A stretch of 64,000 nt of DNA from Candidatus Babelota bacterium (GTDB taxonomy: Bacteria; Babelota; Babeliae; Babelales; RVW-14): contig JABCZU010000005.1 of NCBI GenBank assembly GCA_013289515.1, positions 5,424-69,423 on the forward strand, written 5' to 3'. The position numbers and the translations under genes are program-made. The notes under the pieces were generated by a model, which saw only the letters and a list, made by a program, of their open reading frames with translations, had not been told where the DNA came from and did not search any database. Positions 639-34,017 of this stretch are shown piece by piece (the first letter of the stretch is position 1; each line of letters opens with the position of its first letter).

Positions 639-794
639 AAAACGGCGCTCGTGGTGAGGAAGCTGCGCAGCAGCTGTCTCGAACCATACGAGCGTACGGC
701 GCCAAGATCCTTCGAGACGGCCACGAAGTGGCCTCCTCAGGACGAGCGCTAGCGAGTAGTTTATCCTGAGCCTCGTCGAAGGAAGCGCCGTTTT
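639..794. repeat. Intergenic MITE-like palindromic element. Termini are AAAACGGCGCT ... AGCGCCGTTTT.
   Basis: 11 bp terminal inverted repeats. Internal modules (GCGCTCGTGGTGAGGA..GTCTCGAACC and ATCCTTCGAGACGGCC..CCTCCTCAGGACGAGCGC) recur at 1961-2064, 13045-13079 and 33932-33985. Confidence 0.7.
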
Positions 795-879: not shown

Positions 880-3699
880 TTACAAATCCCGTATTGCCCG
901 ATCAAGCAATGCAACCGCCTCTTGGTACGAAGTCGCCGCATCAAAATGCATCGGCTTACCAATTTTGACGGTAATGCTGCCGCGTGAGCGCGGTAAGAAA
1001 TGATCGTATGGCACGAGGCCTGCAAGGCCAATAATTTTTACTGGCACCACAGGTGCCTTCATCTCAAGCGCAATCAGGCCGGCGCCAGCCTTGAGCGGCG
1101 ATAGGTTGCCATCGCGGCTCATCCTCCCTTCTGGAAAAACAACCACATTGTACCCGGCATCAAGCATGGTGCCCATGTTCAATAGACCGGTGGCAATGTG
1201 TTCGTGTTCATGGCGTGGAAAAGGGAAGGCGTTGAAAAAGAGTTCGGCAAGCCAGGCAAAGGTGCGATATTCTTCATACAAAACATCGTAGGCAGCAGCA
1301 AATGAGATGCGTTTTTTGATTGCAGGAGGCAGTGCAGCCATCACCACCAACCCGTCGATTAGCGAAACATGATTGGGCATAATGATGACCGGGCCGTTAA
1401 TGCCGGCAAGATGTTCCAGGCCTTCAACGCGTATCCGATTGAACAGACACGTGGTAACCAGGCTGATCATACCCCGTCCGGGCATGCGCAATAGCCGTGC
1501 CCACCAGGCCCGTGGCCATGCCTTAACGCGTGGCATTTTTGTTAAGGGCTTGGCGGTGGCGATAATGGTTTCCAATTCTGCTACGGTGGTCTGCGCGGTC
1601 ATCAGACGTTCATCGATCAGGATGCCATACTGCTCTTCAATGCGTGTGATGCACTCTATGCGCATTAATGAATCAAATTTTAAATCAGTACCCAGGCGCG
1701 TATCGCCATTGATGAGTACACTATCCACCCTACTCACCTGCGCCAGCAGCGTAATCAGTTTGGTTACGGCGGCATGAGCACCGGTTGGCAGTTGCTTGTT
1801 GCCATGCTGCTGAAGGTAGGCAATCACCTCGCCTCGTTTAATCTTACGGGTGACGGTACGCGGAAAATCGTCTTGCGGCCAGATTGACCAGCCGGTAATA
1901 TGCTGGTAGGATGCAAGCTGCTGGTTTGCCTGCTGAACAATATGGTCTAGCGTAGACGATGCGCTCGTCCTTGGTTCGAGACGCTGCTTACGCAGCTCCT
2001 CACCACGAGCGCTCACCCTGAGGAGGCCGGAGGCCGTCTCGAAGGGGCCGAAGGATATGAGCGCATCATCCTTGAGCAAAAAGGCAGCATGTATTTCAAG
2101 CTGGCCTGCTGGCGTGGTAAGGCCAACCACACAGGCATCGGCAACGCCAGGAAGCGTGTGCAATACAGCCTCAATATCTTCTGGAAAAATATTTTGTGCC
2201 CCCGGTCCTTTGATCATAAAACGTTGTCGCCCTTTTAAAAACCAAAAGCCATCGTTGTCGCAATAACCGATGTCACCAGTTTTTAACCAACCGTCACTGG
2301 TAAACACTTCGGCCGTCTTTGCCGGATGTTGAAAATAACCTGGCGTAATATTTGGCCCGGTTACCTCGATCTCATTATCCTTGCTCAAGCGCATAGACAC
2401 CATCGGCAGCGGTTTACCCACTGAGCCAAGGCGGCGATGAGCAAAGGTATTGCCCGTCAAGATCGGCGACGTTTCCGTCAGGCCGTACCCTTGCAATACC
2501 GTAACACCAAGATTATCCCAAAATGTTTCTACGGGCGCTTCAAGGGCCGAGCCGCCACAGGCGATAGTATTTAATCGGCCGCCAAACTTTTTTAGTACCG
2601 GCCAGCAGACCAGGCGACGCAACGCTTGCCCTACGAAGCCCTTCGAAGCTTTAGCGGAGTAGGGGCGTAGTAGGGGCATACACGCAGCAAGAGCAAACAT
2701 GCGGTTAAGCATAGCGGTTTTGCCATTGTCATGAGCCTGCACATAAATTTGCTGCCTCATGACGGCTAAAAATTCTGGCACTGCAGCCATTTTGGTAATG
2801 CGGTATGTCTGGAGTAATTCTCTAATCGCGCCGTGTGAGTGCGCATAAATAATGTGCGCACCGAGCAGGTAGGGCAAGAAAAGGCCAACGGTCAGTTCAA
2901 ACATGTGGCTGAGCGGCAAGACGGATAGGAGACGTTCATGGTCGCTCTGTAGGGACAGCAGCTCTTGCGCGCCGAGCACGTCGGACATAATATTGCCGTG
3001 GGTGAGCATGACCCCTTTTGGGTCGCCGGTGGTGCCTGATGTGTACATGATGAGGGCTAGGTTGGTGGGGGCTATTGGTTGGCGTCGCCCCCCTCCATTC
3101 GAACCCTCACCAAAATGGCTCGGGCTATCGCCCTGCGGGTTCTCCATCGGGGCGAACGGCTTTTTTTGACTTGAAAGTACTTTACATTCTTGATCCGACT
3201 CAGGGTGATCGGGAGACTCAGAACCGTTCGCCCCGATGGAGGCTTGTTTCAAGCCGAATGGAGGGGAGCGGCGGTTCAAGACCAGAGACCCCTCCCCCTC
3301 AAACAAATTTTCCAAATCATACGTGACAACATCTGGCAACACATGCCGCACCGAGCGCGCTTTAAAAAAGAGCCGCGCATTGGTCTGCTGCGCAACAAGC
3401 TGCAACATGGTCTGCGTATTTTGTGGCGCCAGTGGCACGACGGGGCACCCGCGCAACAGGCATCCCCACAGCACGACAACCCAGTACGGCGAGTTGGGCG
3501 CACAGATAATGACCGGATCGCCTTTGTTTAGTTGGTGCTTGTCCAGCAATAGTGCCACACGACAGGCAAGATCATAGACCTGTTGGTAGGTCAGGGTTGT
3601 GGTCCGAAAGCCCATGCGCATAGTAAGCGCCGGCTGGCTGGAAAAGCGTTGTGTGCTTTGCGCTAGTAAGTCGGTTAAGAGCGTCATGTTAAAAATCAT
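880..3699 (-). CDS. Three-domain lipid enzyme: AMP-dependent acyl synthetase/ligase, then a phosphopantetheine carrier domain, then a PlsC-type acyltransferase
   Basis: AMP-binding motif IMYTSGTTGDPKGVMLTH. Carrier-like LGTDLKFDSLMRIE. Acyltransferase HX4D motif NHVSLIDG plus FPEGRMSRDG. The ATG overlaps the upstream stop (ATGA). Confidence 0.85.
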   Translation of the reverse strand: MIFNMTLLTDLLAQSTQRFSSQPALTMRMGFRTTTLTYQQVYDLACRVALLLDKHQLNKGDPVIICAPNSPYWVVVLWGCLLRGCPVVPLAPQNTQTMLQLVAQQTNARLFFKARSVRHVLPDVVTYDLENLFEGEGSLVLNRRSPPFGLKQASIGANGSESPDHPESDQECKVLSSQKKPFAPMENPQGDSPSHFGEGSNGGGRRQPIAPTNLALIMYTSGTTGDPKGVMLTHGNIMSDVLGAQELLSLQSDHERLLSVLPLSHMFELTVGLFLPYLLGAHIIYAHSHGAIRELLQTYRITKMAAVPEFLAVMRQQIYVQAHDNGKTAMLNRMFALAACMPLLRPYSAKASKGFVGQALRRLVCWPVLKKFGGRLNTIACGGSALEAPVETFWDNLGVTVLQGYGLTETSPILTGNTFAHRRLGSVGKPLPMVSMRLSKDNEIEVTGPNITPGYFQHPAKTAEVFTSDGWLKTGDIGYCDNDGFWFLKGRQRFMIKGPGAQNIFPEDIEAVLHTLPGVADACVVGLTTPAGQLEIHAAFLLKDDALISFGPFETASGLLRVSARGEELRKQRLEPRTSASSTLDHIVQQANQQLASYQHITGWSIWPQDDFPRTVTRKIKRGEVIAYLQQHGNKQLPTGAHAAVTKLITLLAQVSRVDSVLINGDTRLGTDLKFDSLMRIECITRIEEQYGILIDERLMTAQTTVAELETIIATAKPLTKMPRVKAWPRAWWARLLRMPGRGMISLVTTCLFNRIRVEGLEHLAGINGPVIIMPNHVSLIDGLVVMAALPPAIKKRISFAAAYDVLYEEYRTFAWLAELFFNAFPFPRHEHEHIATGLLNMGTMLDAGYNVVVFPEGRMSRDGNLSPLKAGAGLIALEMKAPVVPVKIIGLAGLVPYDHFLPRSRGSITVKIGKPMHFDAATSYQEAVALLDRAIRDL
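1961..2064. repeat. Palindromic repeat element embedded in frame in the 880..3699 CDS
   Basis: Its reverse complement matches the modules of the 639-794 element. It encodes FGPFETASGLLRVSARGEELRKQRLEPRT between the ligase and carrier domains. Confidence 0.7.
3085..3300. repeat. Composite palindromic repeat element embedded in frame in the 880..3699 CDS
   Basis: Holds inverted copies of CCGTTCGCCCCGATGGAG and CCTCCATTCGAAC. The segment 3089-3167 is the reverse complement of a near-identical segment at 13081-13160. Confidence 0.75.
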
Positions 3700-4844
3700 T
3701 CAAGATCATCATCAGCACTAGCACCAAGAACGTCAGCTATTGCCGAAGCTTCTGCCAACTCGAGCTCACGCTTACTGAGTGGGGATAGCAACCCCCTAAC
3801 CCATGATGAGACACCAGATGTAATAGCATGTTGCTTTAACTGGAGCGATTGCATTAATGAGATCGTATTGCTAGTAGACGACGCCAACGGTGCTCGCTGC
3901 ACCTGGGCCTGCTGGGGCACCCTAACATCAGCTGGTACCGATAATTCAACCTGCTGTCCTCCCGCTACGCTCGGAGCATTATCACGCACAGGCGGCTCAT
4001 CCTGATCAGGATCATTAGAACAATATTTTTCATAGGCCGCAATCTCAGCAACACTCAGCCCATTAAATAAAAATTCTTGCCATGAAGTATAGTTATTAAA
4101 CAGCGCGCAAAGTCGTTCCAGAACACTTGTACGCTCACCTTCCCAATAATCTCTGTAATTTTTTTTATTGAATCTATCAATCTGCTCACTATCAACAGAG
4201 GTGAAAACAATAGCCTCCGTACTCGTTGCAAAACCTTTGTAGGCATACAGTGACCATAATGGTAGCGGCAGCCTAAAAGGCTGTGCCTGTTTCTCGGCAA
4301 ACCATGCTAGTGCCTTGTTTTTAGCCTGGGCAAATGAAATAAGGCAGGTGCGCCCAAGCAAACCTGCCCCAAACCAATAGAGGTATTTTTGTTTAAAGAT
4401 TTTCATAAGATCATAGGAATAACGGTACTGTTGAACATCTCGCATGAACGTTGCAAATGTGCGTTCAGGCTTCAATGAGAGCATTTCACACGTTGCATAA
4501 TCCTGCTGAGCACGTAACGTTGCTATCAACACGTACGTCCCAATAATCTCCCATTCATGCACATCCAATGCGGCCCATTTTTTTGAATCACCTTTATTGC
4601 GCAGGTAAAGATACATGAGTGGCACATGACCATCTGTCATGTGTTCCCTAATCCACTCTAAAACAAGGTCCTTATCATCGGTCGTAAGTAGCTCCCGCAA
4701 TATTCCAATGAGCGGGGTAAATGCTTGCCGCGCAAGAAGCTGATTACAGGCCTCTTTTTTTGTATCGGTCCACAGATGCTGCGCATCAAGAGGTTGATAG
4801 TTGAAAACAAAGAGCAACAATAAGAGTTTTACTATAATGCGCAT
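3696..4844 (-). CDS. Hypothetical secreted protein, paralog of the 4872..5849 gene
   Basis: Signal peptide MRIIVKLLLLLFVF. Motifs shared with the neighbour include HVPLMYLYL vs HVPLLYELF and LPLPLW vs LPLPVW. Confidence 0.7.
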   Translation of the reverse strand: MRIIVKLLLLLFVFNYQPLDAQHLWTDTKKEACNQLLARQAFTPLIGILRELLTTDDKDLVLEWIREHMTDGHVPLMYLYLRNKGDSKKWAALDVHEWEIIGTYVLIATLRAQQDYATCEMLSLKPERTFATFMRDVQQYRYSYDLMKIFKQKYLYWFGAGLLGRTCLISFAQAKNKALAWFAEKQAQPFRLPLPLWSLYAYKGFATSTEAIVFTSVDSEQIDRFNKKNYRDYWEGERTSVLERLCALFNNYTSWQEFLFNGLSVAEIAAYEKYCSNDPDQDEPPVRDNAPSVAGGQQVELSVPADVRVPQQAQVQRAPLASSTSNTISLMQSLQLKQHAITSGVSSWVRGLLSPLSKRELELAEASAIADVLGASADDDLE

Positions 4845-7779: not shown

Positions 7780-7932
7780 GTACGATTCTCCTACGGTTAT
7801 CGTGGGCTATTTTAAACATCTGATTGTCTTTCCTGTAAATATCTTGTAAAAATATGGTTCGATTATGGACGCAAATAAAAGTGTTAGCAATCCTTAGTGA
7901 TGTTTATTGCGTCGGCCATTACGCAGCCAGGC

Positions 7933-8119
7933 GTCGTCCCAGGCTTGACCTGGGATCCAGGGGAAACTGCACATGGCTTAGTACTAATATTCTCGTATTT
8001 CCATCATACAAATTCCCAAGCAGTCAGGATGAAAAGATTATGATAAAAACTAAAAAGGCATTGTTGGTGAATGTTTTTTCTACCCTTCCCCTGGATCCCA
8101 GGTCAAGCCTGGGATGACG
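7933..8119. mobile_element. 187 bp MITE-like element with 33 bp terminal inverted repeats
   Basis: CGTCGTCCCAGGCTTGACCTGGGATCCAGGGGA at 7933-7965 matches the reverse complement of 8087-8119 at 32 of 33 positions. AT-rich, non-coding interior. Confidence 0.8.
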
Positions 8120-10016: not shown

Positions 10017-10208
10017 AAGGTCAAGTCCTGGATGACAAGTAAGGAAGTGCTTTATTTTGATTGGATCCTGAAACGAGTTCCCAGCCTTCGCATAAAGCTA
10101 CGGCGGGCAGGCTAGGATGACAAATCAATGGTAAACTTTTTCACCTTGTTGTCACCCTGAATAGTAATTTTTCCGTTTTTGTCATCCTGAACTCGTTTCA
10201 GGATCCAC
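10017..10208. repeat. Composite palindromic element with a perfect 19 bp inverted repeat
   Basis: TGGATCCTGAAACGAGTTC at 10062-10080 against GAACTCGTTTCAGGATCCA at 10189-10207. The left end (GGTCAAGTCCTGGATGAC) resembles the end of the 7933-8119 element. Confidence 0.7.
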
Positions 10209-12566: not shown

Positions 12567-14618
12567 ATGCTACCACAAAAATATCAATATTTCTTCTGGC
12601 GGCTTAACGAAATGGGAATAAAAACCGCAGGCAAACTTTTATATTATCGTCTCAAAAAAAAATTGTTTGCTATGCGCTACCACAAGCGATGGCGCCAGGG
12701 CCTATCATATTCCAGCTGGGCAACGCTTGCTAAAAGGCACAACCTGCCACCCTTTGAGCAATGTTTTGCCACGTTACACAATAATAATCTCTGTGGGCAG
12801 ATCTGGTCAGATGAACTTTTTAAGACCAGTATTCCGGCACGATGGCACGACAAACAGGCGGTGTACCAACAGGCTGATGCAGTCGCCGATGGACGCATCA
12901 GTATTTTAGGCTTTGACAGGCTGCAATTGCCCGAAGGGCCAATTCCGTGGCATGAGGACGTTACGCATGCAGTCAAATCGCCGGTGGGCTGGCAGAGGGA
13001 TTTTTATCAGCATATTAGCATTCTGTCGCAAGAAGAGAATGTATGCGCTCATATCCTTCGACAAGCTCAGGACGAGCGCCTTTTTTCCGTTCGCCCCGAT
13101 GGAGAACCCGCAGGGCATAGCCTGAGCTTTGCGAAGGTTCGAATGGAGGGGGCCGAACGGGACAGAACGCACGACATAAAAGTACCGTGGGAACTATCAC
13201 GCTCCCAGCACCTCTTTGTGCTCGGCCTAGGATACCATTACGCAATCCAGGACCGAGACCACGTGCGCATGGAACGATACGCTGCCACCTTCACGCGGCA
13301 TTGCACCGACTGGCTTGATAATAACCCCTTCCTCCAGGGCGTCAATTGGACCAACCCCATGGAAGTCGCCATACGGGCCATCAACTGGACGTGGGCTTTT
13401 TACTTTTTTAAGGCAGCGCCAGAAATCACGCCAGCTTTGTGGGAACGTTTTATTACAGCGCTCTACGATCATGCCATCTATCTTGAGCACCATTGGGAAA
13501 TTTCAGACAAGCCAAATAATCACTATCTTGCCAATGTTATCGGCTATTTGTATCTGTGCAATTTTTTTGCGCCACTGATTAAACGCTTTAAGTGGCTACA
13601 GCGGCAGACGCTCAGTCAGCTCTGCATAGCCTGGAAAGATCAGATGCTCCATGACGGCACGAGTTATGAGGGATCCAGCGCGTACCACTCACTGGTCACT
13701 GAAATGGTGCTGCATGGCATCCTGATTGATAGATACACATACCGCAAGCTTCCGGATACATTAACCACGCTCTTTAAGCGAATGCATGAGGTAACTGGCC
13801 ATCTTGCATACGCACCCGATGCCTTGCTGCATATCGGCGATAATGACAGCGGTACGATCGTCACCGGCCTTGCCTATACGCCAACTCAGGCGCCGCAACT
13901 GCAAACCTATCAGCATTTTGGTCTCACCATCATGCGTCAGCCGGACTGGCTCCTCACCTTTCGTCATCCAGCCTATAAACCGGAGCAACCAACGGGGCAC
14001 TTTCATCAGGATGCACTCTCGTTTACCCTCAGTGCACACGGCATGCCGCTTTTTATTGATCCAGGCACCTATCTGTACACATCACATGCAGCAGCCAGAA
14101 ATTATTTGCGCAGCGTCGGCAGTCACAATACTTTTTTTATATCGAGCGCTCAAGGGCTTGAAATGCCCTCAGATCTTTTTCAGCTACCACAACAGCCACA
14201 AGCATGGCATGCGACCATTACGCATAATGATGGACAGGTAACTATACAAGATCATCATGCTGGCTATGGGCCACCGGGACTATGCGCATGGCGCCGTATG
14301 GTGATAAGCACGCAAGAAAACATCATTAGGTGCACTGATTGGTGGGAAATAATGGATGGCTATAGCGGTGACGATGCTTTGGGCAGTACATGGGTGCTGT
14401 CACTGGCACCAGGCCTTGATGCGCTACAAGAGAATGATACAACCTGGCTTTTAAAAAGGGAAAGCCGTCCCTTAGCAACCATAACCACATCAGTGGCATA
14501 CAGCATTAAACCAAGTTTTGCTGCGCCTGCGTATGGCGCACAGCTGCCAACTACCCTGTTGACCGCAACCGCGGGGATAGATACAATGCCAATGGAATTT
14601 GCTATACAACTTTTATAG
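12567..14618 (+). CDS. Heparinase II/III-like family protein
   Basis: C-terminal motif GHFHQDALSFTLSAHGMPLFIDPGTYLY...HNT. Carries an in-frame repeat insertion at 13045-13160. Confidence 0.7.
   Translation: MLPQKYQYFFWRLNEMGIKTAGKLLYYRLKKKLFAMRYHKRWRQGLSYSSWATLAKRHNLPPFEQCFATLHNNNLCGQIWSDELFKTSIPARWHDKQAVYQQADAVADGRISILGFDRLQLPEGPIPWHEDVTHAVKSPVGWQRDFYQHISILSQEENVCAHILRQAQDERLFSVRPDGEPAGHSLSFAKVRMEGAERDRTHDIKVPWELSRSQHLFVLGLGYHYAIQDRDHVRMERYAATFTRHCTDWLDNNPFLQGVNWTNPMEVAIRAINWTWAFYFFKAAPEITPALWERFITALYDHAIYLEHHWEISDKPNNHYLANVIGYLYLCNFFAPLIKRFKWLQRQTLSQLCIAWKDQMLHDGTSYEGSSAYHSLVTEMVLHGILIDRYTYRKLPDTLTTLFKRMHEVTGHLAYAPDALLHIGDNDSGTIVTGLAYTPTQAPQLQTYQHFGLTIMRQPDWLLTFRHPAYKPEQPTGHFHQDALSFTLSAHGMPLFIDPGTYLYTSHAAARNYLRSVGSHNTFFISSAQGLEMPSDLFQLPQQPQAWHATITHNDGQVTIQDHHAGYGPPGLCAWRRMVISTQENIIRCTDWWEIMDGYSGDDALGSTWVLSLAPGLDALQENDTTWLLKRESRPLATITTSVAYSIKPSFAAPAYGAQLPTTLLTATAGIDTMPMEFAIQLL
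13045..13160. repeat. Palindromic repeat element embedded in frame in the heparinase-like CDS
   Basis: GCGCTCATATCCTTCGACAAGCTCAGGACGAGCGC followed by CCGTTCGCCCCGATGGAGAACCCGCAGGGC..GGTTCGAATGGAGGGG. Encodes ILRQAQDERLFSVRPDGEPAGHSLSFAKVRMEGAER. Confidence 0.75.
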
Positions 14619-29643: not shown

Positions 29644-29708
29644 AAGCAGAAAATACGCGTATTAAAAAAAGAGGAAAATGCCCTCTAGATCATCAAAATC
29701 ATAACGCC
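29644..29708 (+). pseudogene. Remnant of a DUF1016 gene 3' end
   Basis: AGCAGAAAAT..TCATCAAAATC(A/G)TAACGCC aligns with 32183-32244, the 3' end of the intact DUF1016 gene. The same palindrome follows it. Confidence 0.6.
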
Positions 29709-29714
29709 ATGTAA

Positions 29715-29736
29715 TTGTGCAGCAGCTGCTGCACAA
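29715..29736. repeat. 22 bp perfect palindrome TTGTGCAGCAGCTGCTGCACAA, copy 1
   Basis: Read directly. Followed by the conserved TTACACACATGAGGAAT leader of the ankyrin gene. Confidence 0.9.
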
Positions 29737-29767
29737 ATTGGTATTACACACATGAGGAATCTCATCA

Positions 29768-30955
29768 ATGACCATTCTATCACACTCTAGCATCAATCGA
29801 ATTAAAGTTGCCTTATTTATGGCGGCTCTCACGAGCAGCTGTTCACTGCTGGGCATGGACGCTTCGGAAGGGCAACAAACAGATAACGCGCAAGCCCACT
29901 GGAATACAACCACTGCCTTAGAGAAAATTGGTAAATACAACAAGGAATTTGACCAATCAATTCTTGATGCGATTAACACAATACTTTTGCCAACCGGCTC
30001 TCAGTACGAGCTGCGTGAAATATCCAATCGATACATGATACGGGATATTCATGACATGATAGTTGCTGAGTATTACGACAGTCCTGGACTGCGCGAGGAT
30101 GCACAAATTGTTTTTGATTATTTACACAATGTTCAAGGCTTTGCAGTACGCAATGGCAGGCTGGTTAACCGCACTAACCCTGATGGCCAAACTATTCTTC
30201 ATCTGATTGCTGCTGATCTGAACCTAATAAGAGCATTGCCCATTTTGGATGCGCTCATCTCCATAATGCTAGCATATGGTATCGATCCATACCAAAGCAC
30301 TAAGCTATACCAAGCAATAGCCGATAAAGATATTAAAAGAGCAACTCAGCTCCTTGCCAATGGTGCCAATCCAAATGGGCCAATTGATAAAAATGGTGAA
30401 ATGCCTATAACGATTTGGCAACGGCTAAGGATGGGGCTAACACAAACAAGAGTACTGATGCGAGACATGCTAATGAATGCATCTGGTAGATATCAGAGCG
30501 AGCCGCCCCTTGTTAAGGCGGCAAAAATGGATGATGATTCATTTTTGCAACTACTTCTTAAATATGGGGCCTATGTAGACGGTAAAGACTGTGAGGGCAA
30601 CACACCATTATGCACTGTTATCTCATTAAGCAATGGAGTCCGTCTCTTGCCCAAGGATGGGCTATTGCAAACTATGCATTTGGTTAAGTGTGGCGCCAAC
30701 ATTAATATCAGAAATAATTGCAGCGCAACGCCATTGCACCTTGCCACGAACAGACACGGTGCTTATCGATTAATTGAACTTTTGTTGCATTTTGGTGCTG
30801 ATATGAATGCACTCAATAGAGATGGTCGTACACCATTATATGGCCAGGAGTGTTATAGATTACTAAGGTATGATCCTACAAATGCGGCTATACAAATCAT
30901 GCTTCAGAATCATATTCAACAGGAACAAACTAGCGCCACCACAACCGCTACGTGA
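29768..30955 (+). CDS. Ankyrin-repeat protein with signal peptide (family member 2)
   Basis: MTILSHSSINRIKVALFMAALTSSCSLLGMD and ANK motifs. Confidence 0.85.
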   Translation: MTILSHSSINRIKVALFMAALTSSCSLLGMDASEGQQTDNAQAHWNTTTALEKIGKYNKEFDQSILDAINTILLPTGSQYELREISNRYMIRDIHDMIVAEYYDSPGLREDAQIVFDYLHNVQGFAVRNGRLVNRTNPDGQTILHLIAADLNLIRALPILDALISIMLAYGIDPYQSTKLYQAIADKDIKRATQLLANGANPNGPIDKNGEMPITIWQRLRMGLTQTRVLMRDMLMNASGRYQSEPPLVKAAKMDDDSFLQLLLKYGAYVDGKDCEGNTPLCTVISLSNGVRLLPKDGLLQTMHLVKCGANINIRNNCSATPLHLATNRHGAYRLIELLLHFGADMNALNRDGRTPLYGQECYRLLRYDPTNAAIQIMLQNHIQQEQTSATTTAT

Positions 30956-30961
30956 AGATTC

Positions 30962-30990
30962 TTGCCCGTAAGCCAGCTAGCAATTATACT
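30962..30990 (+). promoter_or_regulatory. Conserved promoter-like TTGCCC-N17-TATACT, second copy
   Basis: Same flank sequence as 28832-28860. Confidence 0.45.
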
Positions 30991-31046
30991 AGCGGGTAAT
31001 TGGTATTGGATAAATATAACCACAGAAGTATTTCGTTAAGGTTGCC

Positions 31047-32240
31047 ATGGTAAAAAAAATAAAAGCTGCTCCGAAAAAAAATAGTTCTGCATTAAAAATT
31101 AATCAAAAAGACTACGTGCACTTTCTTGAAAAACTTACGGCAGATATTGCAACAACCCAATTACAAGCAGCCTTGGCTATCACCAAAGAGCTAACGATGC
31201 TGTACTGGCGGATAGGTACCATGCTCTCAGAAAAAATAGGAGATCAAGGATGGGGCGCGAAGACCATAGATCGTCTCGCCAGTGACCTTCAGTCAGCCTT
31301 TCCGGATATATCGGGATTTTCTGTACGAAACCTTAAGTACATGCGCAAATTTGCTGACTGCTACACTGATATCAATTGTGCAGCAGCTGCTGCACAAATT
31401 CCATGGGGCCACAACATGGTCATCTTGGATAAGGTCAAGGACCTCGCACAAAGGCTTTGGTATGCACAACAAACCATTGAAAATGGCTGGAGTCGTAGCA
31501 TGCTTGAACACTGGATTGAATCAATGCTATACAGCCGAAAAGGCAAGGCGGTTACTAATTTCAAAAAGACCCTGCCGCCAACCCAATCAGATTTAGCAGA
31601 GCAAACGCTTAAGGACCCGTATAATTTCTCATTTATCGCACTGGATACCAAATTTAGAGAAAGAGAGCTTGAGCAAGGGCTTATCGATCACGTACAAAAA
31701 TTTTTAATAGAGCTTGGTGATGGGTTTGCCTTTGTTGGAAGGCAGTATCGCATTGAAATAGATGATGAAGATAATTTTATTGATCTGCTATTTTATCATA
31801 CAAAATTGCGCTGCTACATTATCGTCGAATTAAAGGCTACAGCATTTGATCCAAGAGATGCAGGGCAGATAAATTTTTACCTATCTGCCGTTGATGCTAT
31901 GTTAAAGCACCCAGCAGACAATCCATCAATAGGTATTTTGTTATGCAAAACCAAAAGTAGAATCAAAGCGGAATACGCGCTTAGAGACATAAATAAACCG
32001 ATAGGCGTAGCAAGTTATAAAACACAATTAGTAGAAAGTCTGCCTAAATCTTTTAAGGGAAGTTTGCCAACTACTGAAGAAATTGAGACTGAGCTAGAAA
32101 AACAGGAATTATTGGCTGGCAACAAGACGGTCAAAGAGCAAAAGAAAGTACCGAAGAAAGCGCCAATTAAGGCTAAAACAAAGCAGAAAATGAGCGCATC
32201 AAAGAAGAGCAAAAGGCCGTCTAAATCATCAAAATCGTAA
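31047..32240 (+). CDS. DUF1016 / YhcG-like PDDEXK nuclease family protein (second copy)
   Basis: FAFVGRQYRIEIDDEDNFIDLLFYHTKLRCYIIVELKATAFDPRDAGQINFYL. Lys-rich C-terminal tail. Confidence 0.8.
   Translation: MVKKIKAAPKKNSSALKINQKDYVHFLEKLTADIATTQLQAALAITKELTMLYWRIGTMLSEKIGDQGWGAKTIDRLASDLQSAFPDISGFSVRNLKYMRKFADCYTDINCAAAAAQIPWGHNMVILDKVKDLAQRLWYAQQTIENGWSRSMLEHWIESMLYSRKGKAVTNFKKTLPPTQSDLAEQTLKDPYNFSFIALDTKFRERELEQGLIDHVQKFLIELGDGFAFVGRQYRIEIDDEDNFIDLLFYHTKLRCYIIVELKATAFDPRDAGQINFYLSAVDAMLKHPADNPSIGILLCKTKSRIKAEYALRDINKPIGVASYKTQLVESLPKSFKGSLPTTEEIETELEKQELLAGNKTVKEQKKVPKKAPIKAKTKQKMSASKKSKRPSKSSKS
31376..31397. repeat. 22 bp palindrome, copy 2, inside the DUF1016 CDS
   Basis: Encodes NCAAAAAQ in frame. 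The paralog at 20123 has unrelated residues at this position. Confidence 0.9.
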
Positions 32241-32286
32241 CGCCATGTAATTGTGCAGCAGCTGCTGCACAATTACATGGCGTTAC
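32237..32286. repeat. 50 bp perfect palindrome containing 22 bp core copy 3
   Basis: All 25 base pairs were checked by hand (GTAACGCCATGTAATTGTGCAGCAG|CTGCTGCACAATTACATGGCGTTAC). It overlaps the DUF1016 stop codon. Confidence 0.95.
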
Positions 32287-32306
32287 ACACATGAGGAATA
32301 TTATCA

Positions 32307-33419
32307 ATGACCATTCTATCACACTCCAATACCAATCAAATAATGCTCGCCTTATTTGTGGCAGTCCTCACGAGCAGCTGTCCGCTTTTGGGTATGAATA
32401 CCTGTGAAGAGCACCAAACATCTGCCCAACTATCTCACTACACAGCCGCTGCTTTGAAAGAAATTGGTAGACGTAACAAGGAATTTGATCAATCAATTCT
32501 TGATGCGATTAACACAATACTTTTGCCAACCGGCCCTCAGTGCGAAGTACGTGAAATATCCAATCGATACATGATACGGGATATTCATGATATGATAGTT
32601 ACTGAATATTACGACAATCCTGGACTGTGCCAGGACGCACAACTTGTTTTTGATTATTTATACGATATCCAAAATTTTGCCATACGCAATGGCAGGCTGG
32701 TTAACCGCACTAACCCTGATGGCAATACTATCCTGCACCTTATCGCTGCTGATATCAACGCTGCACAGACAGAAAGAATAAAGTTCGTTTATAAGGCACT
32801 TATCAGAATTACACAAGAATATAACATTGATTCAAACCCAAGCGCCCAGCTATGCGAGGCGATAAAGGCTAAGGATCTTGCAAGAGCCACTCAGTTACTT
32901 AATGAGGGCACCGATCCAAATGGTATGGTCAATAAAAAGGGGCAGTTGCCTCCTTCCTTATATTTCATACCCAAAAGACAATACCTATCGCATTATCATC
33001 CACAAGACATGTGGCGGCAACTGACGATCAATGGGATCTTCCTGGACCTAACGAGGGTATCTGGAAACTCACCACTTACACTAGCAGATAACAATTTTGA
33101 GTTTATATCACTGCTACTCAGATATGGGGCCTATGTAGATTGTAAAAATTTTTTAAATCCTGCACTGTTACTTACCACTTTTTTTATTTACAACAACGTA
33201 AGCATCCAGGATAAGTGCCATAAAGAGTTCCCTTTACATGCGGCCTGCAAACGGAACTCTCCTGAATTTGTTGAATGTTTGTTACAACAGGGTGCTGATG
33301 TACATGCTATTGATGCTTGCGGCAGAACACCGCTCGATGTTGCTGAGGATGAGCAGAGGAACAGGCCAGGCGATCATAAGCCGGCGGCTATAGTTGCTAT
33401 GCTGAAGAACGTTGCTTAA
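32307..33419 (+). CDS. Ankyrin-repeat protein with signal peptide (family member 3)
   Basis: MTILSHSNTNQIMLALFVAVLTSSCPLLGMN and ANK motifs. Confidence 0.85.
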   Translation: MTILSHSNTNQIMLALFVAVLTSSCPLLGMNTCEEHQTSAQLSHYTAAALKEIGRRNKEFDQSILDAINTILLPTGPQCEVREISNRYMIRDIHDMIVTEYYDNPGLCQDAQLVFDYLYDIQNFAIRNGRLVNRTNPDGNTILHLIAADINAAQTERIKFVYKALIRITQEYNIDSNPSAQLCEAIKAKDLARATQLLNEGTDPNGMVNKKGQLPPSLYFIPKRQYLSHYHPQDMWRQLTINGIFLDLTRVSGNSPLTLADNNFEFISLLLRYGAYVDCKNFLNPALLLTTFFIYNNVSIQDKCHKEFPLHAACKRNSPEFVECLLQQGADVHAIDACGRTPLDVAEDEQRNRPGDHKPAAIVAMLKNVA

Positions 33420-33432
33420 CAATAAGGCTTAT

Positions 33433-33458
33433 AATTGTGCAGCAGCTGCTGCACAATT
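33433..33458. repeat. 26 bp perfect palindrome containing 22 bp core copy 4, between convergent genes
   Basis: AATTGTGCAGCAGCTGCTGCACAATT. It lies between the ankyrin stop (33419) and the pgpA stop (33463), so it could be a bidirectional terminator. Confidence 0.9.
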
Positions 33459-33462
33459 GGCA

Positions 33463-34017
33463 TTACACACATGTAAACCATGCAATAAAAACAGCCACAA
33501 GCCATAGTAATAGGCGAGTTATCACCCCGGCAACGATATCGTCACCAAGCACGCCCCAGCATCCGGGCAATCGACGGTCAATAAAGCCGATAGGGAATGG
33601 TTTAAAGATATCAAGCAACCTGAAGACAGCAAAGGCTAGGAAATACCAGCCCCATTGCTGCGGCACGGCGATGAGGGCAATCAACATGCCTACCACCTCA
33701 TCAATAACAATCCATGAGGGATCTTGGTTGACACTGTTTGGCAGGGAACGCTTGACCGCCAGTAGACCAATGGCCGTAAGGGCAAGCGCTATGCCCAGCG
33801 AATAGCCAACAGGCAGCAGAGGCGTACTGAAAACGATGAGTAGCGTCGCAAGGCTGGCGGCAGTGCCGGGGCATCCGGGGATGTATCCGATACAAAAGAA
33901 TGATGAGATAAGATTGGCTATTTTTTGTGAAGGCGCTCGATATCCTTCGAGACGGTTGCGTTGCAACCTCCTCAGGACGAGCGCCTTTTTCAAGTTTCTA
34001 AAAAAGCCCAATCCCAT
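33463..34017 (-). CDS. pgpA: Phosphatidylglycerophosphatase A
   Basis: FFCIGYIPGCPGTAASL motif, membrane helices and DIFKPFPI. The N-terminal 30 aa derive from a repeat element. Confidence 0.8.
   Translation of the reverse strand: MGLGFFRNLKKALVLRRLQRNRLEGYRAPSQKIANLISSFFCIGYIPGCPGTAASLATLLIVFSTPLLPVGYSLGIALALTAIGLLAVKRSLPNSVNQDPSWIVIDEVVGMLIALIAVPQQWGWYFLAFAVFRLLDIFKPFPIGFIDRRLPGCWGVLGDDIVAGVITRLLLWLVAVFIAWFTCV
33932..33985. repeat. Palindromic repeat element within the pgpA 5' coding region
   Basis: GGCGCTCG..ATCCTTCGAGACGGTTGCGTTGCAACCTCCTCAGGACGAGCGCC. Same family as 639-794. Confidence 0.7.

Follow-up and report, generated by a model that had tools for sequence, protein, structure and literature searches.

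We examined a 64,000-nucleotide (nt) stretch of DNA, referred to here as the window, from a Candidatus Babelota bacterium (assembly GCA_013289515.1, contig JABCZU010000005.1, positions 5,424 to 69,423). Near its start lies a gene for a conserved lipid enzyme into which three segments of dispersed repeat DNA have been inserted in frame. The features that bear most directly on this gene are given below in window coordinates; Z, Y and X denote hairpin modules that are described further on.

880-3699, minus strand: host gene, an intact and uninterrupted open reading frame (ORF) of 939 amino acids (aa)
3085-3300, minus strand: insertion i, 216 nt or 72 codons, aa 134-205, ending 14 residues ahead of YTSGTTGDPKG (the P-loop)
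3082-3159, minus strand, sense to the gene: Z arm A of element i, read as PFAPMENPQG...FGEGSNGGG, whose apical loop contains about 30 nt of nested insertion
3160-3223, minus strand: spacer of element i, 64 nt, AT-richer and single-copy, read as SESPDHPESDQECKVLSSQKK
3224-3274, plus strand, antisense to the gene: Z arm B of element i, a canonical 51-nt unit read as RRSPPFGLKQASIGANG, followed by a tail up to 3300 that is also repeat
About 2629-2670, minus strand: insertion ii, 42 nt or 14 codons, aa about 344-357 (LLRPYSAKASKGFV), forming a small hairpin whose ends are CCCTAC/GTAGGG
1960-2064, minus strand: insertion iii, 105 nt or 35 codons, aa about 546-580

In the encoded protein, Pfam recognizes an AMP-binding domain (residues 14-456), a weak AMP-binding_C match (509-540), a PP-binding domain (647-711) and a PlsC-type Acyltransferase domain (755-889). 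The best NCBIfam similarities, both below threshold, are to long-chain-fatty-acid--CoA ligase and to acyl-[ACP]--phospholipid O-acyltransferase of the Aas type (ACP, acyl carrier protein). Therefore, on the evidence of its domains, the product joins an acyl-CoA/acyl-ACP synthetase, a carrier domain and a PlsC-type acyltransferase in one fused protein, which makes it Aas-like with a reversed domain order and a carrier domain of its own. Homologs are numerous (7741 at E ≤ 1e-20), and the three-domain architecture is common to all 120 of the best 120, whose lengths range from 799 to 858 aa; the few of these that carry names are mostly Babeliales, Dependentiae/TM6 or misfiled "Patescibacteria" bins, which makes the organism an uncultured Dependentiae bacterium. 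The enzyme may be important for scavenging host fatty acids. A preliminary description of this DNA called the gene essential-looking, a label drawn purely from conservation. All of the invariant ANL and PlsC columns of the family, including the catalytic ones, are retained in the 939-aa protein. Its real start is probably the second ATG (MTLLTDLL...; recorded at window 880-894), since orthologs open with MxLTDIL. Between an upstream ORF (3696-4844) and the first ATG there is an overlap of 4 nt.

The 939-aa ORF is about 115 aa longer than its Dependentiae orthologs. A protein alignment of 20 sequences, the query and 19 orthologs (alignment A1), together with a codon alignment of the query with two orthologs at the DNA level (L209, encoding P0002, and L001, encoding P0010), located this excess in three query-specific blocks of 72, 14 and 35 codons. 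The blocks total about 121 residues, or 13% of the enzyme, and subtracting them leaves 818 aa, within the ortholog range. Insertion i is missing from 18 of the 19 orthologs and insertions ii and iii from all 19, so that 18 lack all three blocks; the remaining one, P0010, has an insert of its own at site i. At the level of sequence comparison, the two alignments show the three segments to be lineage-specific insertions. The preliminary description had proposed in-frame palindromic inserts of about 72 aa ahead of the TSGTTG motif (3085-3300) and of about 35 aa (1961-2064) in an unbroken frame, and both alignments bear it out on these points, with no equivalent segment in the orthologs. However, it overlooked the 14-codon block and thus counted two insertions where there are three, and it placed the second between the ligase and carrier domains, whereas insertion iii lies within the C-terminal subdomain of the adenylation domain, upstream of an A10-like PRTVTRKIKR motif (aa 613-622).

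An AlphaFold2 model built on A1 (predicted template modelling score, pTM, 0.73) has confidently folded domains in which the inserts are predicted to be disordered. The predicted local distance difference test score (pLDDT) falls below 50 at residues 151-204 for insertion i, 344-351 for insertion ii and 548-578 for insertion iii, and otherwise in just four short stretches (136-138, 142-145, 222-225 and 634-642). Solved acyl-CoA synthetases from the PDB align to the protein in three blocks with breaks at the inserts; the alignment runs up to aa 90 and resumes at aa 208, skipping insertion i.

All three inserted blocks proved to be dispersed repeat DNA. Logan contigs, an independent assembly, break at the elements: host sequence lies in unique contigs of depth 95-120 that stop 30-46 nt into each element, while the elements themselves are found at some 5-14 times the depth of the host. 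The repeat unitigs have depths of up to 1466, with others at 751, 489 and 264, compared with 95-150 for the host. A search of these contigs for an allele with an empty site revealed none.

Element i is an inverted dimer of the 51-nt Z hairpin around the single-copy 64-nt spacer, and its arms (3082-3159 and 3224-3300) pair with each other as terminal inverted repeats. In searches with a covariance model of Z (R1), arm A scored 53.1 bits (E 1e-10) and arm B 71.6 bits (E 3e-16). Arm A is also 87% identical to 13087-13152 over 71 nt by BLAST, and its Logan unitig (3090-3159) has a depth of 751 against about 100 for the host. On the other side, a Logan contig covering 3200-3266 has a depth of 264 and unique sequence begins only at 3272, which supports the assignment of the tail up to 3300 to the repeat. 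The spacer lies in a Logan contig (3136-3246) at host depth, 110.9, that bridges both arms, and a multi-copy variant of the dimer with a different 21-nt spacer is present at a depth of 694.

Element iii is a head-to-head dimer of Y-long (2009-2064) and X (1961-2012), joined at the self-complementary GAGCGCTC. Pattern searches matched Y at 2009-2045 and X at 1991-2012, and the element folds with a z-score of -5.2 relative to shuffled sequences. A Logan unitig corresponding to 1985-2046, an exact 62-mer, has a depth of 1466 compared with 95-120 for the host (about 14-fold). For element ii, the interval 2627-2675 matches a 218-nt Logan contig at 44 of 49 positions (90%); this contig is about 5 times as deep as the host, has different flanks and carries the match on the opposite strand. 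Rather than two unitary elements, these are oligomers of smaller hairpin modules.

Y, X and Z follow a common design. A basal G+C (guanine plus cytosine) stem is combined with a second, short stem and with an internal loop that is purine-rich and conserved, and the apical hairpin is variable. The 51-nt Z unit has the form CCGTTCGCCCC-GATGGAG-variable hairpin-(CGAGTAGA or CGAATGGA)-GGGGTGCGACGG, and its internal loop sets GAUGGAG opposite CGAGUAGA or CGAAUGGA. Y-short, of about 33 nt, reads GCGCTC..CCTTCGAC-AAG-CTCAGGA..GAGCGC, and in Y-long a variable hairpin replaces its loop (CCTTCGAGAC-hairpin-TCCTCAGG). The internal loop of Y-long and X sets UGAGGAG opposite CGUCUCGAA. X (1961-2012 and 645-694) is a Y-long in which the second stem has changed from CCT/AGG to GGT/ACC, a compensatory swap. 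An apical hairpin of 4-9 bp, different in each case, is present in 31 of 32 Y-long/X units. The Z model aligns to the Y-long unit at 699-749 with E 0.048, a match that reflects the architecture common to Z and Y-long.

Model R1 collected 39 copies of Z (33 distinct) in 46 low-GC sources. Three are in the window, at 3224-3274 (plus), 3082-3159 (minus) and 13087-13160 (plus), the latter two with the extra nested apical segment of about 30 nt. In the resulting alignment, 88% of cells are paired, compared with 34-51% in shifted controls, and double changes occupy 70 cells, compared with 23.4 in shuffles (0 of 500 shuffles reach 70). Five of the six apical pairs covary and the purine-rich internal loop is invariant. 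Since the model itself shaped the alignment and ascertainment fixed the 5' 18-mer in most rows, the case for covariation is carried mainly by the apical helix; these data show that Z forms a selected, covarying hairpin.

The modules are found as monomers, as inverted dimers and nested within one another's loops. Besides element i, inverted pairs of Z are present at five metagenome loci (L145, L190, L175, L161 and L148), and two others (L195 300-400 and L166 11740-11815) have a Y-short-like unit whose loop encloses a Z unit, in the arrangement CCTTCGACTG-Z-CGCTCAGGAC. These arrangements suggest that hairpin loops are insertion targets and that the long forms are nested composites. Neither Z nor Y is represented in Rfam: a search of window positions 1-36000 gave nothing real, and a search of 3060-3320 matched only generic long-hairpin microRNA models on the inverted arms, which are meaningless for a bacterium. 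Two likenesses that had been noticed by eye were dropped: that of the Z internal loop to loop E of bacterial 5S rRNA, as the 5S model was absent from the Rfam matches in 3060-3320, and that of Y-long to a hammerhead core, as the core positions do not fit.

Four further sites in the window carry the modules.

639-794, plus strand: intergenic trimer of X, Y-long and Y-short, 86 nt downstream of the host gene stop codon
7037-7068, minus strand: solo intergenic Y-short hairpin, recognized by complementarity and the Y pattern
13043-13160, plus strand: Y-short (13043-13082) followed by Z with a nested apical insert (13087-13160), within a heparinase II/III-like gene (12567-14618)
33932-33985, plus strand: solo Y-long hairpin, recognized by BLAST and the Y pattern

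The Y pattern has 5 matches in the window, compared with 0 in 100 shuffles, and the Z 18-mer has 3, compared with 0.02 expected. Repeat segments gave fold z-scores against shuffles of -6.5, -5.2, -4.7 and -2.9, and the Z unit at 13087-13160 scored 39.6 bits with R1. It had been proposed earlier that both large elements have close copies at 639-794 and 13045-13160. This holds for 13045-13160, where 3130-3159 and 13087-13116 are 100% complementary and 3085-3113 and 13128-13156 are 86% complementary. It does not hold for 639-794, which is related to element iii only module by module (73-100% over 14-26 nt, in a different order): 1972-1997 and 661-686 are 73% complementary, and BLAST adds matches of 14-21 nt between 1961-2064 and 639-794. 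Shorter matches also tie 1961-2064 to 13043-13060 and to 33940-33990. The truly close copies of element iii are elsewhere in the source metagenome, as the exact 62-mer at 14-fold depth indicates. There the Y-short module at 13054-13081 has a summed Logan depth of about 17,700, compared with 96-148 for the host. The Y-long hairpin at 33932-33985 overlaps the annotated start region of the next ORF, whose true start codon may lie downstream.

Within the heparinase II/III-like gene, the Y-short and Z block at 13043-13160 adds 37 aa in frame. It is missing from 12 orthologs and makes a fourth coding insertion in the window. ORFs beside trpS or adk (in L209 and L001) that were considered as orthologs of this gene turned out to be unrelated, and true orthologs were identified separately. 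The four in-gene elements are open in just 2 (insertion i), 1, 3 and 3 of the six reading frames, and yet every one is open in the frame that its gene uses, which points to a survival filter rather than to an inherently open sequence.

Insertion into coding sequence also recurs outside the window. Z copies fall inside ORFs of at least 100 aa in 11 of 38 cases (about 30%), among them the following on other low-GC metagenome contigs, with host genes identified by Pfam.

L118 267-317: Z in frame in a GH3 hydrolase/glycosidase
L171 2994-3044: Z in frame in RadA, between the zinc ribbon and the ATPase
L149 1293-1343: Z in frame in a nucleotidyl transferase, near its C-terminus

The reading of Z varies from gene to gene, as PFAPME.., RSPRW.. 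or VRPDG.. in the sense direction and ..SIGANG in the antisense direction, so that all three sense frames and one antisense frame are used and no inserted peptide is conserved. One example of an insert-encoded peptide is PFAPMENPQGDSPSHFGEGSNGGGR.

The two modules differ in how widely they are distributed. A scan of metagenome contigs with the Z 18-mer gave 92 loci, of which about 26 have the whole hairpin, all at 33-42% G+C; most of the matches in high-GC contigs were chance matches in coding DNA and were set aside. Z was seen only in low-GC, Dependentiae-like contigs. One low-complexity metagenome sample, Ga0207111, has at least 15 Z 18-mer loci (L118, L123, L149, L151, L166, L175, L179, L186, L188, L190, L192, L194, L200, L204 and L208) on contigs of up to 157 kb and 37-42% G+C, and probably contains a Z-rich Dependentiae genome. 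The Y pattern, in contrast, matched more than 114 stretches in species-representative genomes, compared with about 15 expected by chance on a rough estimate. The groups among the matches listed are Alphaproteobacteria (Hyphomonadaceae, Sphingomonadales and Hyphomicrobiales), Acidobacteriota, Chloroflexota, Actinomycetota, Myxococcales, Latescibacterota, cyanobacteria and several Babeliales; the window's own genome is not visibly among them. A 25-nt core, CCTTCGAC(A/T)(A/G/T)(G/C)CTCAGG(A/G)(C/T)GAGCGC, is nearly unchanged in Alphaproteobacteria, Acidobacteriota, Chloroflexota, Actinomycetota, cyanobacteria and Babeliales (L003-L116). Because the matches exceed chance and extend over many groups, the Y core is common to several phyla. 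Hyphomonadaceae have many long Y forms with covarying apical hairpins.

The extra sequence in ortholog P0010 provides a second case at the same place in the enzyme. This protein, encoded in L001, has about 39 extra residues in the pre-P-loop linker that also holds insertion i, and the corresponding DNA (L001 10420-10535) belongs to a different hairpin element, CCTCGATAC...GTATCGAGAAGG. This element has a full-length copy 3 kb away in an intergenic position (L001 13300-13395; 91% identity over 44 nt). A maximum-likelihood tree joins P0010, with 99/97 support, to P0006 and P0014, which are free of inserts, and not to P0001. Since the element is different and P0010 is placed apart, the two linker insertions are independent, and the pre-P-loop linker is a permissive site, a preferred site or both. 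A linker that has been hit in two lineages marks a natural permissive site and could be useful for engineering insertions into ANL enzymes.

Our preferred explanation, to which we assign a probability of roughly 0.8, is that the three segments are selfish, non-autonomous, GC-rich hairpin repeats tolerated as disordered loops in a Dependentiae (TM6) gene. They would resemble repetitive extragenic palindromic (REP) sequences and the bacterial interspersed mosaic elements (BIMEs) that these form, or Rickettsia palindromic elements (RPEs). Under this explanation, hairpin repeats landed in the coding sequence of the lipid gene and persisted where each was a multiple of three in length, without stop codons in the frame that the gene uses and placed where a surface loop is permissive. 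The inserts would then be transcribed and translated with the gene as disordered loops of about 121 residues in total, and would be nearly neutral for enzyme function. Translation through the inserts seems likely because all four insertions, spread over two genes, leave the frame intact, and there would be no need for this if the mRNA lost them. As is the case for REPs (PMC2817692, PMC3733652), to which we draw an analogy here, the elements may have been spread by a trans-acting enzyme that recognizes hairpins in single-stranded DNA, our best guess being a REP-associated tyrosine transposase (RAYT) or an HUH transposase like those of IS200/IS605, with the loops of existing hairpins as apparently favoured targets.

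The behaviour of these repeats is of a known kind and matches that of RPEs (PMC10969869) and intragenic REPs (PMC3733652), although membership in either family is not supported. RPE-1 to RPE-10 are the palindromic elements of Rickettsia (Ogata et al. 2000, 2002, as summarized in PMC10969869). Like RPEs, the repeats described here are dispersed palindromic sequences of an obligate intracellular bacterium, a large share of which lie in frame within unrelated, intact housekeeping genes and, here, are missing from the orthologs. In both cases the fold of the host protein can accommodate the inserts. The preliminary description had drawn this parallel, and it is strengthened by the finding of lineage-specific, frame-keeping elements in low-confidence loops of a well-folded model. 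Its view that the repeat family differs from RPEs in its peptides also agrees with our results, and the difference goes further, because no single peptide is conserved among the inserts, unlike RPE-1. Whereas an RPE family has one conserved peptide and frame, Z uses three sense frames and one antisense frame. The two also differ in phylum (Dependentiae versus Alphaproteobacteria) and in construction, as the units here are about 25-55 nt and are built into dimers or nested composites of 42-216 nt, whereas RPEs are unitary and about 100-150 bp. Moreover, the Y core is common to many other phyla.

Intragenic REPs with GTAG or CGTC tags have been described (Di Nocera et al. 2013, PMC3733652; Nunvar et al. 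2010, PMC2817692) and are sometimes translated, with dimers encoding 20-30 aa and clusters up to 82 aa (PMC3733652). REPs and BIMEs resemble our modules in being short, G+C-rich, imperfect palindromes that frequently form head-to-head or tail-to-tail dimers and lie mostly just downstream of genes. In size (20-40 bp for REPs), multi-copy state and dimer formation the likeness is close, with Y-short at about 33 nt, Z at 51 nt and multi-copy depths in Logan. However, REPs of the CGTC family have a terminal tag, an 8-9-bp stem starting with AT, a loop of 4-5 nt and a CCA tail (PMC3733652). On inspection of the units, neither the GTAG/CGTC tag nor this geometry was found here, where CGTC occurs only within the basal stem (GCGCT-CGTC-CT, CCGTCGC) and the hairpins combine a variable apical stem with an internal loop that is large, purine-rich and conserved. 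Element i also recalls a transposable element of the miniature inverted-repeat type (MITE; PMC10969869), being about 216 bp long with inverted arms of about 75 nt and an AT-richer core and encoding no transposase. It differs in having no target-site duplication that we could see and in having arms that are autonomous units found alone elsewhere; because its core is single-copy, it is better regarded as a REP-dimer-like mosaic than as a unitary MITE. A literature search for Dependentiae palindromic elements and for the typical insert peptides found no description of the Z or Y hairpins.

Several observations weigh against reading the segments as selfish mobile repeats. The closest ortholog is 56% identical and there is no near-identical strain with an empty site, so that recent mobility or polymorphism lacks direct support. 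No target-site duplication was seen at the junctions, which are not base-resolved given that the closest empty site is in this 56%-identical ortholog. Within the window, no transposase is evident near the elements. None of the RNA runs searched contains the host gene. The Logan contigs come from the sole public run that contains the stretch (X1, a soil metagenome), which is probably the window's own source sample, and their depths sum every organism in that sample and thus indicate multiple copies rather than copy numbers. Finally, the strong covariation and the strictly conserved internal loop could mean a function of the RNA in the host rather than pure selfishness.

A broader version of the selfish-repeat explanation would make Y, X and Z one undescribed superfamily of ultra-small mobile hairpins, moved by a single, horizontally travelling enzyme, inserting preferentially into single-stranded loops, those of one another among them, so that nested composites arise, and spreading across phyla. 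We regard this as a tentative proposal that is rather doubtful at present. If true, such hairpins would be a main source, in Dependentiae, of both new disordered loops and protein lengthening, given that about 30% of Z copies are coding.

An unlikely but better-supported alternative than those that follow is that the hairpins have been exapted as functional parts of the mRNA or protein, either as protein-binding loops that tune translation, pausing or mRNA decay, or as selected peptide loops. An invariant internal loop with a covarying apical stem is what is seen in protein-binding RNA or DNA hairpins, intergenic copies often lie a few bases past the 3' ends of genes, as do REPs with post-transcriptional roles (PMC3733652), and the pre-P-loop linker was hit twice independently. 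However, the use of both orientations and of all sense frames means that neither one RNA strand nor a peptide is conserved within genes. Furthermore, the prediction for the inserted peptides is disorder, there is no relationship among the host genes (the lipid enzyme, the heparinase-like gene, RadA and GH3), and nearly all of the aligned orthologs do without the inserts.

It is much less probable that the gene is a decaying pseudogene or that the inserts are assembly artefacts in which repeats were mis-threaded. The elements do coincide exactly with de Bruijn contig breaks, so the assembler chose paths through them, and the one run found is probably the source of the window itself. However, the unique contigs at host depth enter each element from both sides with 0 mismatches over their 30-46 nt, and the central spacer of element i is a unique contig at host depth that joins its two arms. 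As for a pseudogene, the 939-codon frame is unbroken, each invariant catalytic column is retained and the domains are predicted to fold confidently. Four insertions in two genes that keep the frame, with only 1-3 of six frames open, argue against both possibilities.

Least credible of all is that the segments are an ancestral linker that was lost elsewhere and from which the repeats were copied: the length of the linker at site i does vary among orthologs and P0010 has extra sequence there, but the present data contradict this account, as 18 of 19 orthologs across the tree are without all three segments, the extra segment of P0010 belongs to another element that has a copy of its own nearby, the Z and Y modules are found in a large number of unrelated contexts and genomes (Y in several phyla), and the in-gene copies are 87-100% identical to other copies whereas no ortholog exceeds 56% identity to the host protein.

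If the segments are tolerated selfish repeats, as we favour, selfish DNA inside proteins extends from Rickettsia and a few REP-rich bacteria to Dependentiae. To our knowledge, almost no experimental genetics exists for this protist-associated phylum. A single conserved lipid-scavenging enzyme would then tolerate repeat-derived sequence at three sites and to 13% of its length. The conserved internal loop of Z and Y provides a handle for finding the mobilizing enzyme. On a practical level, assemblies are inflated and fragmented by such repeats, and gene callers can be misled by them, as when false N-termini are created.

The window also contains repeats of other kinds. Two inverted-repeat elements, at 7932-8119 and 10017-10208, have 34-nt arms (GGCGTCGTCCCAGGCTTGACCTGGGATCCAGGGGAA) and AT-rich cores and appear MITE-like, a family distinct from Y and Z. 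In addition, a perfect palindrome, TTGTGCAGCAGCTGCTGCACAA, which is unrelated to the Y, X and Z hairpins, is present at four places in 29702-33459 beside paralogous genes.

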